Numbered from the stretch's first letter, positions 34,732 through 38,832 are shown. The stretch: 38,832 bases of DNA from an uncultured Candidatus Saccharibacteria bacterium (GCA_964557735.1 CAZLAR010000002.1:1-38832); one strand, 5' to 3'. The notes: generated by a model not told the origin, from the sequence alone. Translations and numbers: made by a program.

Positions 34732-34980
34732 ATGCAAGAGCAGCAGAAGCAGCTGTTATCGGATCCAAGGAAGTTAATCCCTTTATCTGAAGCTGCTAAA
34801 GCAACAGAATACTCTGCAGAATATCTGTCGTTACTCTCTAGGAGAGGAAGAATTCCAGCAGTTAAAATCTCCCGCGATTGGCTAACTACACGCCAGGCGG
34901 TTTTATGGTATGTAACCAGACAAAAAAATAAGCATGGGCAACAGTTAAAGAAAGTTACGCAGTCTGGGGGGGTAAGATAA
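34732..34980 (+). CDS. Excisionase/MerR-like helix-turn-helix DNA-binding protein
   Basis: 82 aa. LIPLSEAAKATEYSAEYLSLLSRRGRIPAVKISRDWLTTRQAVLWYV fits the HTH_17-type pattern. Its stop overlaps the next ATG (TAATG). Confidence 0.65.
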   Translation: MQEQQKQLLSDPRKLIPLSEAAKATEYSAEYLSLLSRRGRIPAVKISRDWLTTRQAVLWYVTRQKNKHGQQLKKVTQSGGVR

Positions 34981-37900
34981 TGCCACAAGTAACTTTTAAC
35001 ATGATCCATGACTTGGCTGTCAGGCATCATGCACCAAAAGAAGAAATCCCAGCTTTCTATGGAATGCGCACTGGCTTCCTTAGAGTGTGGTTTTTCGTAG
35101 CTGTAAAAGTACTGTTCATTACTGCGTTGATGAGCGGTTTTAATTTTGCGTCAAAAATTGAAGAGAATATTGGTTTACTAGATCAATTAATGCGTAACGA
35201 CTTTGGCGTTGAAACATATGTTGCAAGTACATCTCCTAAAAAAATAGTGCAAGTACCATTTCAACCACGTGGACCAGAAGTTACAAATGGAGTGGTCGCT
35301 TCAGCTAACGATGAATCTGAAAATAATGTAATTACAAGTAACTATATTAGCGATGACGCAAGAGAAGGAACAGTTGCGTCAGAGTCCACCATCGTAGTAA
35401 ATAATTATTCTTCTGAAAGCATTGAAAGTTACATTGACCAAGTAGTGAGAGAGTATTTAGCTTTTGCAATTTCAGCGAGATTTATTTTACCAGGGACTGG
35501 AGATAGAAGTGATGGTTGTGTGCAAATTGATTCAAATAATATTGTTACTACTCGTGGTACGCGTTGTGGCGGTGGTGGAGGCGGTGGCGGTTCGTCTGGT
35601 GGCGGCACATTGGCCATTGGTGGAACAATTACTTCTGCAACTGAGGATTCAATTTTATTTGTTGGACCACTCGGTGTGCTTGCACAAGACAATGCTAATT
35701 TTTCATATGACGATGCAACAGACACTCTTGCCGTTGGCGGTGATTTTAATTTAACTGGAGACGCAACTGTAACCGGTTTAGCTGGTAGCGGTGTGCGTTG
35801 TTTGCAAACTGATAACAACGGACTGGTTTCCGTAGCTGGCGCAGCTTGTGGTGCAGGTGGTGGGCAGACTCCATGGACTTCTGCAATCGATGCAGGTGGT
35901 TATGCTTTGCAAAATGCTGGAGCTATTAACGGTTTAGTTATTACACCGAACACTGGCACTATTACAACTGGTATTTGGAATGGCACAGCTCTCACCGATG
36001 CATATGTTTCTGATACATTAACGGCCTCACTTTTTAGTGGCACAGGATCAACTACAACTGCAGTCGATTTAGCAACTGCAGAAGTTAATGGTACGTTGCC
36101 AGTTGGAAACGGTGGTACTGGTGCAATTACTTTTGTTTCTAATGGCGTTCTTTATGGAAATACTACTGGTGCGATACAAGCTACTGCTCAAGGTGGGGCA
36201 AACACTGTCTTGGTTGCTAACGCAGGAGTACCGAGTTTTAGCTCGGCTATTACAGTTGGTACTAGTGTAACTTCGCCTACCATTAACGCCACCACCGCTC
36301 TGCAAGTTGGTGGTGTTAGCATTAATACAGCTGGTACTCTTACTAACGTTGCTTATGTAAACCAAGCTAATACATTTACATTTAACCAAACAATTTCTAA
36401 AATCGACCCATCTATTGTTTTGGCAACACCTGGGTCAGATACTGACTTCTGGCTTTCTGTTACAGATGATGGTGGAAATGATGACGATGATCTCTTTCAA
36501 ATTGGAGATGGCGGAACTCCTGGCACCAATCCGTTCTTGACTATTAATACTACTGGGGATGTTGGTATTGGAGTTAGTCCGAATTCTGGCTCCATCTTAC
36601 ATGTAAGAGGTGGATTTCGATTCGATAGAGGCGATGGCACTAAAGAAATAGAGTGGAATGATTCCGCCAGAATTTTTGGAATTAACCCAGACCAAAGTAA
36701 TGGCCCATACTTCCTTGTTAACGGTGATACTTTGTATGGCCTATTTTCTGTAGCTCCTGCTACCAACACAGTCGGTATTGGTACAGGTGGATTGGGCGGC
36801 GCTTACCGTTTAGATGTCCTAAATAATGCTACTGCCCAGACCGCTTCCAACCGCGTAGCCAATTTTAGCAACGCAGGGGCAACCTTTAATACTACTGGCG
36901 GAGTCTTATCTTCTTATTCTGGTTATTTCTCATCTACTTCAACTCGTTCTGCAGGAGCAAATGATTTAACAAATGTGGGGCTATATGCTACTGCATCAGG
37001 AGCCCAACTAAACTACGCTGCTATTTTTGAAGCTGGTAGTGTAGGGATTGGGACGACGACTCCAGGACCTGGTTTAGGAACTGGAGTATCAATTTATTCT
37101 GATAACTATGGTTACGATATTGAAACTTCGCAGATTCACTTATCAGATACAGGAGATATATATTTACAGCATCCGTCCCAAATGCCAACCATTCGAGGGT
37201 CAAACACAGTTCAAGTGCTTTCAGTTATTGGAGGTATTCAAACATATTCTGAATTATTACTAGGCGGTACTACACAAGCCACTAATGGAAAAATTACCAT
37301 TCAACCAAACACAGCTAGTGCCAATTCCACAATTACAGTTGATCCTAATGGGGTTGGCATCGGCGTCACAAGTCCTGACGGAATCTTAGAGCTTGGTGGT
37401 AATCGTTCTAAAACTGCCTGGGGAGTTAACGGCATTGCTCTACAAGGTACAGCCGCTACTTACACCGACACATCTTCTTCAGGAACTGTAGCCTCTGCCG
37501 TGGCTAACTCTTTTGGTGTTCCAACTTTTGCAGCTAGCTCTGCGACAACTTACACTGCATCAGCTAACTTATACATAGCCGGCCCTCCAGCTTCTGGTGC
37601 TAATGTTACTCAATCCAATCCTTATGCTCTTTGGGTTGATAGTGGTAATGTACGCATTGATGGTACCCTTGGCTATAATGGAGACCTTGATTCATATTTA
37701 AATTTTGGCACAGGTGAGTTACGGTCAAGTTCTTCATTAACTATTCGCTCCAGAAATGGTGAAGGTATTTTACTAGATGGAGCTGGAAATTCTCCAGCAG
37801 GAGGCGGAGCCAGATTAAGCTTGGGTGGTAATAGTGTTTCTACGGGTGATGCTGGAGCAGACGAAGTCGTGTTTTATAATGGCGCTGCGGAAAACATGAG

Positions 37901-38832
37901 AATATTAAGTACTGGTTTGATAGGTATCGGCACCACAGCCCCAGATAAACGCCTGGAAATCAACTCCGCTACAGGAGTTAATCTTCGCCTAACCTATAAT
38001 GACAACAATGGAAGCGCTACTAACTATGCAGATCTTCTCACCACTGCCACGGGAGACCTAACAGTTGTCCCAAGTGGGGGAGATGTAGGGATAACGGGAA
38101 ACCTAGGCATTACCTCTGCTAACACTACTCAAACTACAACTGCCTCTGCCCTCGCTCTCAATGTAAACTCTCTAACAACAGGCACAGGTCTAAACATTGC
38201 CTCTTCTTCTCTATCCTCAGGCTCTCTACTTAACCTTGCTGTCACTGGTACAGCAGGACTAGATAACCAAAAAGGTATTAACGTCTCTATGTCTGGAGCT
38301 AACGGTACTGGAGCTCAAACTACCTATGGTGGTTACTTCTCTAACACCCATACCGGTACTTCTACTAATGTAGGTCTATATGCTACTGCAACAGGAGGAA
38401 CCAACAACTACGCTGCTATCTTTGAAGCGGGGAATGTGGGGATTGGGACTACTGCGCCAAGTGCATCACTGCATATTATTGCCCCGACCAGTGATACTAT
38501 AAATGTGGCAATATTCAAGGGTAATTATGCAGCTAGCGATTATCCTGTGATCTATGTCAATAATGGTAGTAACGCTTCAGCTATTGGATTTAATACCTAC
38601 GAAGGCAATGAGTATGCTATAGGTGTTAATACAAGCCATGATTTTATCATCTCATCAGGTAGAGCCCTAGCAAGTTCTCCAATAGTTACTTTTTCAGACA
38701 TTGGCGATATGGATATTTTATCTCAAGATCTTGGTAACGGCACAGCCGGCCCCGTAATCACTCTCGGTCGAAACACAAACGCCACCAACACTGGCGCTGG
38801 CTCTATTAATTTCCAAAGCAAGGGTGGCACTG
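34980..38832 (+). CDS. Giant membrane-anchored tail-fibre-like surface protein, 3'-truncated by the window end (at least 1284 codons)
   Basis: I read the frame codon by codon from ATG 34980 to 38832 and found no stop. Has an N-terminal TM helix (FLRVWFFVAVKVLFITALMSGF), a Gly run, LPVGNGGTGA, and six periodic [VI]GIG[TV]..P...L motifs. It is absent from the ORF track because no stop lies inside the window. Confidence 0.85.
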   Translation, partial: MPQVTFNMIHDLAVRHHAPKEEIPAFYGMRTGFLRVWFFVAVKVLFITALMSGFNFASKIEENIGLLDQLMRNDFGVETYVASTSPKKIVQVPFQPRGPEVTNGVVASANDESENNVITSNYISDDAREGTVASESTIVVNNYSSESIESYIDQVVREYLAFAISARFILPGTGDRSDGCVQIDSNNIVTTRGTRCGGGGGGGGSSGGGTLAIGGTITSATEDSILFVGPLGVLAQDNANFSYDDATDTLAVGGDFNLTGDATVTGLAGSGVRCLQTDNNGLVSVAGAACGAGGGQTPWTSAIDAGGYALQNAGAINGLVITPNTGTITTGIWNGTALTDAYVSDTLTASLFSGTGSTTTAVDLATAEVNGTLPVGNGGTGAITFVSNGVLYGNTTGAIQATAQGGANTVLVANAGVPSFSSAITVGTSVTSPTINATTALQVGGVSINTAGTLTNVAYVNQANTFTFNQTISKIDPSIVLATPGSDTDFWLSVTDDGGNDDDDLFQIGDGGTPGTNPFLTINTTGDVGIGVSPNSGSILHVRGGFRFDRGDGTKEIEWNDSARIFGINPDQSNGPYFLVNGDTLYGLFSVAPATNTVGIGTGGLGGAYRLDVLNNATAQTASNRVANFSNAGATFNTTGGVLSSYSGYFSSTSTRSAGANDLTNVGLYATASGAQLNYAAIFEAGSVGIGTTTPGPGLGTGVSIYSDNYGYDIETSQIHLSDTGDIYLQHPSQMPTIRGSNTVQVLSVIGGIQTYSELLLGGTTQATNGKITIQPNTASANSTITVDPNGVGIGVTSPDGILELGGNRSKTAWGVNGIALQGTAATYTDTSSSGTVASAVANSFGVPTFAASSATTYTASANLYIAGPPASGANVTQSNPYALWVDSGNVRIDGTLGYNGDLDSYLNFGTGELRSSSSLTIRSRNGEGILLDGAGNSPAGGGARLSLGGNSVSTGDAGADEVVFYNGAAENMRILSTGLIGIGTTAPDKRLEINSATGVNLRLTYNDNNGSATNYADLLTTATGDLTVVPSGGDVGITGNLGITSANTTQTTTASALALNVNSLTTGTGLNIASSSLSSGSLLNLAVTGTAGLDNQKGINVSMSGANGTGAQTTYGGYFSNTHTGTSTNVGLYATATGGTNNYAAIFEAGNVGIGTTAPSASLHIIAPTSDTINVAIFKGNYAASDYPVIYVNNGSNASAIGFNTYEGNEYAIGVNTSHDFIISSGRALASSPIVTFSDIGDMDILSQDLGNGTAGPVITLGRNTNATNTGAGSINFQSKGGT

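Follow-up and report, generated by a model that had tools for sequence, protein, structure and literature searches.

A probable membrane-anchored surface fibre of a Patescibacteria bacterium, encoded in one operon with a predicted winged-helix DNA-binding protein

The window analysed here, 38,832 nucleotides (nt) from an uncultured Candidatus Saccharibacteria bacterium (GCA_964557735.1, CAZLAR010000002.1:1-38832), ends inside a very long gene that starts at position 34980 on the plus strand. This frame is a real gene, of which the window holds the first ~80%, the whole protein being predicted to have ~1,600 amino acids (aa). It probably encodes a surface fibre of a Patescibacteria bacterium that is anchored by a single membrane pass with its N-terminus inside the cell and that is coupled to a small helix-turn-helix (HTH) protein. 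The HTH gene directly precedes the fibre gene, and the two constitute a translationally coupled two-gene operon. The original prediction, which had recognized a giant tail-fibre-like surface protein at this position, left unremarked the HTH gene, its promoter and leader, and the fusions that occur in relatives; with them, the most interesting way to read the locus becomes a different one.

Translation of positions 34980-38832 gives 1284 codons uninterrupted by a stop, the gene leaving the window at 38832, and each of the remaining five frames of the same stretch contains 41-120 stops. Upstream, the open frame is limited at 34932, and the first ATG within it, at 34980, is the start shared by homologs, eight of which begin with MP(Q/E)ITVNLIHDL. 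The frame had already been described as open from 34980 to the window end and as absent from the track of open reading frames (ORFs). Both statements hold, and the gene is missing from the list because ORFs running off the source are left out. An assembly or sequencing error, which had been named as a threat to the frame, is countered by Logan contig L001 (SRR8893621; L and P numbers are our handles for loci and proteins), which is 100% identical to window positions 34496-35761 (1266 nt), including the first 782 nt (260 codons) of the fibre gene. Since L001 was assembled independently, an assembly artefact is very unlikely. A strain variant, ENA contig L002, is 97.8% identical. Attempts to follow the gene to its stop, as had been suggested, gave no longer contig in the collections searched: look-up of the exact 82-aa HTH protein returned only 0.8-1.3-kb contigs, an exact 68-nt match was not found in JGI metagenomes, a protein-based metagenome scan gave module-level matches only, and a scan of GTDB genomes provided no longer contig for the fibre gene. 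Assemblies often break within such genes (L001, L074, L088, L090 and L091), and ORF callers then drop the cut frames, which is why these genes are under-annotated.

The N-terminal region has the organization of a membrane anchor (Table 1). One hydrophobic segment was found in the fragment, at about residues 33-55, in agreement with the single N-terminal transmembrane (TM) helix proposed originally, and the description of a large, N-terminally anchored surface protein of a small-genome candidate phyla radiation (CPR) bacterium can be maintained. In the alignment of the window family, mean identity is 46% in the cytoplasmic tail, 55-61% in the TM and juxtamembrane segments and 22% in the linker next to the tail-TM unit. 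Residues M1, N7, D11, G28 and R30 of the tail are invariant among eight homologs, as are W37, K43, V44 and G53 of the TM segment. K43 (35106-35108) lies in the middle of the membrane and is invariant, together with W37 and G53, in all eight anchor-module proteins; judging from this conservation, it may be an intramembrane contact or oligomerisation site.

Beyond the linker, the fragment is rich in Gly, Thr, Asn and Ala and fibre-like in composition throughout. The proximal shaft comprises, in order, an amphipathic helix, a first cysteine loop (C180-C196), a poly-Gly hinge (197-210), a widespread '...SILFVG..GVLAQDNANFSYDD' module (211-260), a second cysteine loop (C274-C290), a 'SDTLTAS...LPVGNGGTGA' module and a 'NGVLYGN...PSFSSAITVGTSVTSP' module. 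The total of four cysteines is arranged as two C-x15-C pairs (180/196 and 274/290). All sequence motifs listed in the original prediction were found, among them CGGGGGGGGSSGGG at residues 196-209 and LPVGNGGTGA at residue 373. The [VI]GIG motif occurs six times, as claimed, at residues 528, 598, 688, 792, 981 and 1153; with a spacing of 70-189 aa, it is recurrent rather than strictly periodic. The two similar blocks of ~30 aa reported to lie ~1.4 kb apart correspond to 31-aa blocks at residues 665 and 1130, which are identical at 25 of 31 positions, begin 1395 nt apart and share 78% identity at the DNA level.

A search of a large protein database recovered 29 homologs of 800-2229 aa. Those with a named source come nearly all from Patescibacteria metagenome-assembled genomes (MAGs); several carry PF13884 (Peptidase_S74, "chaperone of endosialidase"), and the S74-bearing homologs are named "tail fiber domain-containing protein" by NCBI. 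In this first search the homology was modular, the N-terminal 473 residues matching P0001 and the last 44 residues matching P0004, P0008 and P0014 (identities in Table 1), with very little in between. The terminal motif (GPVITLGRNTNATNTGAGSINFQSKGGT) sits 310-335 residues from the C-terminus in P0004, P0008, P0010 and P0014, and is followed after ~45 residues by a TQTSTRxTKQDI motif, in which Ser and Lys are spaced (Ser-x4-Lys) as in the catalytic dyad of the endosialidase S74 domain. In these four proteins, the C-terminal module passes the PF13884 gathering score (best E 4.4e-8), a profile made from the homologs' module had no match in PDB, and the syntenic orthologs P0004 and P0006 both carry S74. 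Since the terminal motif is collinear with the four S74 homologs, the predicted full length is ~1,580-1,610 aa, and the unseen C-terminus would consist of an S74 chaperone, a coiled-coil, a conserved ~95-aa domain and a Pro/Glu-rich tail. The intramolecular chaperone that the original prediction suggested looking for is thus present in relatives and deduced for this copy; a Pfam scan of the 1284 aa detected no S74 domain, the gene being cut off by the end of the window. The ~95-aa domain between S74 and the Pro/Glu-rich tail recurs at the C-termini of P0001-P0006, P0008-P0010, P0014, L035 and L037 with the pattern LYLSGD..GEAKIL.G...V.F...Y.YQPIVT.TP...YWV.DK...GFTI.....DI.FDWHSFAG..AKLTVSDG. 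It had no Pfam or PDB sequence match, and lies distal to the self-cleavage site.

The anchor module is rare. When a profile of the N-terminal 340 aa was searched against 1.84 billion representative proteins (E<=1e-3), 6064 proteins matched, and ~16 of these (ten long, six fragments) span the tail-TM-juxtamembrane module. The other matches cover only a ~50-80-aa '...GSILFAG..GVLAQDNANFFWDD...' module, often present many times over, in up to 12 copies, and in proteins of up to 6,605 aa. This module (window residues 211-260, 35610-35759; loci L009-L086) corresponds to no Pfam family. In a genome scan it was found in MAGs labelled Patescibacteria, Bdellovibrionales, Micavibrio, Dependentiae and others, and Bdellovibrionales, Micavibrio and Dependentiae are predatory or host-dependent lineages.

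The locus is of cellular rather than phage character. The window encodes ComM/Mg-chelatase-like, FtsH, SMC, RluD-like, SOD, AhpC, RNase Y, YmdB, NusA and ClpP proteins and two tRNAs; no phage genes were found in it and there was no match to PHROGs. Its NusA falls in a 90% cluster with an NCBI protein of a "Patescibacteria group bacterium". The order RNase Y-YmdB-methyltransferase-orf141-UPF0102-NusA-ClpP-HTH-giant gene is shared with L006, L008 and L097. In L006 and L008, RNase Y, NusA and ClpP are 88-94% identical to those of the window and the HTH protein 63-72%; identity is 49-55% for fibre residues 1-75 and 52-54% for residues 156-470, and residues 471-1240 have no detectable tblastn match. 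A third syntenic ortholog, P0031 (locus L097), shares 29% of residues 471-1240. Used as a query, this central segment recovered 90 database proteins, many with S74, each sharing only 8-50% of it, the coverage of individual parts ranging from 1 to 45 homologs. Judged from these alignments, the fibre centre is assembled from shared modules in mosaic fashion, as expected of a surface or receptor-binding protein that swaps modules and evolves fast. Among strains and relatives, the repeat blocks, for which a comparison had been suggested originally, and the modules vary to an extreme degree.

The second component of the operon is an 82-aa protein with a mean column identity of 78%, and its gene precedes the fibre gene with a 1-nt overlap in all scorable anchor-module loci (the window and L001-L008). 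The AlphaFold2 (AF2) model of this protein, built with 63 homologs, has a predicted local distance difference test score (pLDDT) of 88.9 and contains strands E15-17, E43-46 and E49-53 and helices H18-23, H29-37 and H54-79, that is, the beta-alpha-alpha-beta-beta fold of MerR/excisionase winged helices, to which a long helix (54-79) is added at the C-terminus. Its Foldseek neighbours include the phage P2 DNA-binding protein, TraN, Pukovnik Xis, BldC and RdfS as well as the DNA-binding domains of NmlR, SoxR and CarH. With this model in hand, we confidently predict a winged-helix fold, the neighbours of which are DNA binders. In sequence, it matches HTH_17 (PF12728) over profile positions 5-50 of 51 (15.6 bits, E 0.02), and it recognizes by tblastn (E 6e-9 and 2e-6) the copies in L035 and L037, which are fused to the fibre and reach 29.8 bits, above the HTH_17 cutoff of 27. 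A role as recombination directionality factor of a shufflon was considered and rejected, there being no adjacent recombinase and the fused HTH-TM-fibre forms arguing against it.

The operon is preceded by a consensus promoter placed 108 nt before the HTH start codon, and equivalent promoters, with 11-12 of 12 matching bases and a 17-nt spacer, are present in L001-L004 and L006-L008. A dyad within the promoter spacer, AGCAA-N5-TTGCT, was tested as a MerR-type operator and discarded, as it is not conserved in other loci. The leader, ~85-110 nt long across loci, contains an invariant box AGTATCGG (34634-34641), a small TCGG/CCAA hairpin (34638-34649), a 10-bp hairpin (34650-34677) of which the loop CAAAAATAG (CAAAAnTAG) is conserved and the stem varies, and an A-rich tract before the ATG. 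For eight loci, RNAalifold predicted 14 pairs, and compensatory changes are seen in 8 of these; covariation scored 0.406, versus 0.19 for column shuffles (0/500 reach 0.406) and at most 0.138 for slid registers. G-U pairs favour an RNA of the sense strand, and no Rfam family matched. With eight sequences only, the covariation is suggestive, and the leader may represent a new element by which HTH-fibre operons are regulated in cis or their mRNA is stabilised. An operator target of the HTH protein was not identified, the leader element showing covariation of the RNA type rather than a palindromic operator.

The linkage between the two components extends well beyond the window family. Searching the fetched loci by tblastn with the 82-aa protein revealed distant copies, 31-45% identical, in nine more loci, and three architectures can be distinguished. 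In architecture A, a single polypeptide joins HTH, linker, TM helix and giant fibre (L074, L035 with 2,690 aa, L037 with 5,796 aa, L080, L041 and L023); the L035 chain, for example, comprises HTH_17 (10-58), a TM helix (~123-145), the fibre, Peptidase_S74 (2150-2205) and a surface Ig-like domain. In architecture B, that of the window, a soluble HTH gene is followed by a tail-TM-fibre gene, and in architecture C, a 119-125-aa HTH-TM protein is immediately followed by a giant protein with a signal peptide (L063, L071, L053, L091, L093 and L095). HTH, TM helix and fibre are thus split at differing points in different lineages, a pattern classically taken as evidence for joint action in a single assembly. 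Seven loci were then collected with the HTH as starting point, a sampling without bias towards the giant gene, and a giant gene lies directly downstream of the HTH gene in 7/7. It encodes at least 2,118 aa in L087, 2,718 aa with S74 in L089, at least 501 aa up to the contig end in L091, 8,307 aa in L093, 1,575 aa with LVIVD repeats in L095, 3,496 aa with S74 in L096 and 1,209 aa in L097.

Several individual cases deserve mention. P0393 (1,071 aa, NCBI, from a 5,086-nt contig) combines a genuine MerR-family HTH (PF00376/PF13411) with a TM helix and an S74 fibre, and P0327 (1,320 aa) combines HTH_17, TM helix and fibre; both surfaced only through central fibre modules that they have in common with the window protein. 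In L093 (9001-18369; ENA ERZ27297473, a 600-kb contig), a 122-aa HTH-TM gene shares 1 nt with the start of the gene for the 8,307-aa protein, which is rich in [VI]GIG modules and larger than any other partner encountered with this HTH family. In L089 (ENA ERZ12298642 scaffold_8234_c1), an 83-aa HTH gene and the giant gene adjoin a COX1-3, COX_ARM and UbiA cluster. Cytochrome c oxidase neighbours are unusual for Patescibacteria, so that the cassette may occur beyond the CPR, or the contig may belong to another lineage.

Taken together, we propose that the signal-anchor would insert the protein with its N-terminus inside and that the low-complexity linker would span the wall. As in phage tail fibres and endosialidases, trimerisation of the shaft would start at the C-terminal end, nucleated by the S74 chaperone, which would afterwards sever itself by self-cleavage, the product presumably being a trimeric fibre whose N-terminus tethers it to the cell membrane. 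The distal, exchangeable modules could bind a ligand on a host or partner cell, leading to attachment or host recognition by the epibiont. The HTH protein most likely docks on the conserved cytoplasmic tail, judging from the fusion pattern, and would link fibre production or state to transcription, either as autoregulation or as contact signalling. Adhesion and signalling are the functions that we infer for the cassette.

Several observations weigh against this proposal. The 1284-aa fragment has no significant match in Pfam, PHROGs, NCBIfam or PDB sequences, the lone PDB sequence match being a poly-Gly artefact. The S74 domain, the stop codon and the entire C-terminus of this copy lie beyond the window, and no longer contig was found. 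The HTH protein of the window remains under the HTH_17 gathering cutoff of 27, and its Foldseek matches (probability 0.85-0.98, root-mean-square deviation 1.7-3.0 A) have E-values of just 0.09-0.5. The TM helix carries an invariant lysine at its middle, which one would not usually see in a simple, passive anchor. The AF2 monomer model of residues 156-560 is poor (mean pLDDT 60, predicted template modelling score 0.34; confident for 386-455 only), Foldseek with this tile returned nothing significant (best E 0.83) and a profile of the proximal shaft had no match in PDB, so that the fibrous trimeric fold stays a prediction. Of the likeness to phage tail fibres claimed originally, the part that stands is the kinship with CPR S74 "tail fiber domain-containing proteins"; the fibre or beta-helix fold itself was not confirmed.

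The closest known systems are the phage S74 fibres and tailspikes, such as the K1F endosialidase, the L-shaped tail fibre pb1 of T5 and the GA-1 neck appendage. Members of the family share PF13884 and the Ser-x4-Lys dyad, a long Gly/Thr/Asn-rich shaft and a recombining mosaic with a hypervariable distal part and, by analogy, are expected to share a homotrimeric state matured by self-cleavage; for the window copy, S74 is deduced and lies outside the sequence read. They differ in that the window gene resides in a cellular housekeeping locus, its product has a cytoplasmic tail and TM anchor as N-terminus, the CPR homologs continue after the chaperone with the ~95-aa domain and Pro/Glu tail, and a DNA-binding domain is paired or fused with the fibre. 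A virion component was rejected for lack of a PHROGs match and in view of the housekeeping neighbours and the tail-TM N-terminus; by analogy, the protein would rather work like a phage tail fibre of the S74-chaperoned kind that has become an appendage anchored to the cell. The NCBI "tail fiber domain-containing" and "beta strand repeat-containing" proteins of Patescibacteria MAGs (such as P0004, P0013, P0026 and P0312) are direct homologs with shared modules, P0004 sharing the whole architecture, and form the database class of the window protein. These class names are automatic, the literature searches turned up no study of the class, and the window-type N-terminal anchor is rare (~16 of 1.84 billion representative proteins). 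A trimeric autotransporter adhesin was also rejected, since neither a C-terminal beta-barrel nor a YadA-type Pfam match was found in the 1284 aa and the C-termini of homologs consist of S74 and an uncharacterised domain; a weak YadA_head match in P0006 scored 21.5 bits versus a cutoff of 25.

With respect to the regulatory side, the eukaryotic transcription factor MYRF is membrane-bound and has an ICA/S74 domain (PMC3742443, PMC3742440, PMC8326128). It is the only described system that, like the fused L035 and P0393, has a DNA-binding domain, a TM helix, a beta-helical stalk and S74/ICA in one protein. In MYRF, however, the DNA-binding domain is of the Ndt80 type and lies on the same membrane side as ICA, and cleavage frees the transcription factor. 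In the fused relatives, the TM helix is located between the MerR/Xis-type HTH and S74, and S74 cleavage therefore cannot release the HTH. A MYRF-like self-cleaving topology was accordingly rejected from the order HTH-TM-fibre-S74 in L035 and the position of the TM helix (33-55) before the whole fibre in the window family. ToxR, CadC and TcpP bind DNA with a cytoplasmic part and ligands with an extracytoplasmic one, the two being joined by a single TM helix, and in SigI/RsgI pairs a small sigma factor gene lies just upstream of the gene for a membrane-bound anti-sigma protein with extracellular binding modules. The cassette resembles these systems in topology and, in its split form, in having a regulator gene upstream of a membrane protein gene, but it employs a MerR/Xis winged HTH fold rather than an OmpR-type domain or a sigma factor, and a fibre of 1,200-8,300 aa instead of a compact sensor. 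The window itself does not encode a ToxR/CadC-type single polypeptide, as the HTH and TM-fibre parts are separate, coupled genes, the single-chain form occurring in relatives only. BldC, Xis, RdfS and TraN have a similar size and, according to the model, the same winged-helix fold as the 82-aa protein, and are distinguished from it by its long C-terminal helix (54-79), its strict linkage to a giant membrane protein and the absence of adjacent recombinase or conjugation genes.

It could be that the fibre is primarily the sensor arm of a membrane-tethered MerR/Xis-type factor, here split into two polypeptides, in which case host-surface binding, fibre assembly or maturation would be relayed across the membrane to the HTH and from there to gene expression, with a topology akin to that of ToxR/CadC and, in the split form, a logic like that of the sigma/anti-sigma RsgI pair. 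We hold this only as a tentative possibility. It would account for the Rosetta-stone fusions (the single chains of architecture A together with P0327 and P0393), for a split placed before the TM helix, on its cytoplasmic side, in the window family and after it, towards the outside, in the loci of architecture C, for the linkage in all seven HTH-side samples, and for the better conservation of tail and TM helix than of the adjoining linker and of the HTH than of the fibre. The lack of an identified target operator and the RNA-like behaviour of the leader speak against it; one TM helix carrying a long flexible fibre transmits mechanical signals poorly, and the HTH might just autoregulate an abundant surface protein. 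If true, it would represent a prokaryotic one-component system with an adhesin as receptor, and a bacterial assembly of the parts of MYRF (DNA-binding domain, TM helix, beta-helical stalk and ICA).

An abundant structural coat, that is, an S-layer-like spike or envelope fibre serving architecture or protection from phages and host defences and not a specific adhesin, is unlikely; variability would then reflect antigenic or phage-receptor escape. Consensus promoters and leader hairpins are typical of highly expressed S-layer genes, and the perfect promoter with its extended -10 and the conserved leader hairpin would fit such a role, as would the hypervariable exposed centre and the position among housekeeping genes, syntenic in four genomes. 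However, no SLH or S-layer domains were found with Pfam, none of the S74-chaperoned proteins known so far forms lattices, these being MYRF and fibres or spikes that bind receptors, and the LVIVD, Laminin_G_3 and SGNH modules of relatives (of propeller, lectin and esterase types) suggest interaction with ligands. The presence of SGNH/GDSL hydrolase domains in P0318, P0329 and P0384, which share central modules with the window protein, together with the first description of S74 on endosialidase tailspikes, raises the further idea that the centre holds a glycan-degrading or esterase domain attacking the host envelope, as in a tailspike-like depolymerase; we find this very improbable, as no hydrolase, lyase or esterase domain was detected in the 1284 aa, whose composition is that of a fibre. 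Finally, the resemblance in kind to phage tail fibres and the end of the contig within the gene might point to a prophage or phage-derived tail-fibre gene, or to a false long frame created by assembly or sequencing. To this we give next to no credence, and both versions were rejected: there are no phage genes or PHROGs matches, the locus is syntenic between ClpP and the downstream genes (L006, L008 and L097), the N-terminus is a TM anchor and not a virion-attachment domain, the independent assembly is 100% identical, and both ends of the fragment are collinear with full-length homologs. The HTH-coupled, membrane-anchored surface fibre thus remains our preferred interpretation.

Table 1. Positions of the promoter, leader and coding segments of the HTH-fibre operon in the window
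Feature	Position	Strand	Evidence
Sigma-70 promoter TTGACA-17-TATAAT, extended -10 (TGc)	34595..34623	+	12/12 match
Conserved 5' leader	34624..34731	+	8-sequence alignment
82-aa MerR/Xis-type winged-helix (HTH_17-like) protein, predicted	34732..34980	+	stop overlaps fibre ATG by 1 nt (TAATG)
Fibre, cytoplasmic tail, residues 1-32, positively charged, conserved (MPQVTFNMIHDL...GMRTGFLR)	34980..35075	+	8-homolog alignment
Fibre, single TM helix and conserved juxtamembrane segment IEENIGLLDQLMRNDF, residues 33-76	35076..35207	+	hydropathy windows 31-57, invariant columns
Fibre, low-complexity linker, residues 77-150, putative wall-spanning stalk	35208..35429	+	22% mean identity, length varies
Fibre, conserved proximal shaft, residues 151-470	35430..36389	+	66% identity to P0001 over residues 1-473
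Fibre, hypervariable mosaic centre, residues 471-1240	36390..38699	+	six [VI]GIG-led modules, two 31-aa blocks
Fibre, conserved end motif '...GNGTAGPVITLGRNTNATNTGAGSINFQSKGGT', residues 1241-1284, cut by window end	38700..38832	+	63-68% to P0004, P0008, P0014

Two further regions of the window were noted. The spacer between ClpP and the HTH gene (window 33672-34594) measures ~1,060 nt, versus 155-200 nt in L006, L008 and L097, and the extra DNA, which looks like a lineage-specific insertion, contains a 112-aa ORF on the minus strand (33713-34051) without Pfam match and small hydrophobic ORFs (34237-34443 and 34151-34249, minus strand) behind a promoter-like site of their own (11/12, 34455-34427). 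At 17275-21928, three tandem ORFs encode proteins of 508 aa (no Pfam match), 161 aa and 839 aa (DUF11 surface repeat), the latter two overlapping by 1 nt, and may constitute a second surface-protein operon.

Host recognition by CPR/Patescibacteria is largely unknown beyond type IV pili (PMC12206443), and genetics has shown several adhesins to be essential for epibiotic growth (PMC10633639). Our literature search for S74-type fibres, giant surface proteins or HTH-giant gene cassettes in the CPR returned nothing specific. The locus described here is a concrete and widespread candidate for host recognition, with a membrane-anchored, hypervariable and phage-fibre-like surface protein encoded at a conserved chromosomal position. 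What is new is the obligatory pairing or fusion of the fibre with a DNA-binding domain, which is undescribed in the literature searched and makes a coupling between surface contact and transcription in these bacteria a testable hypothesis.

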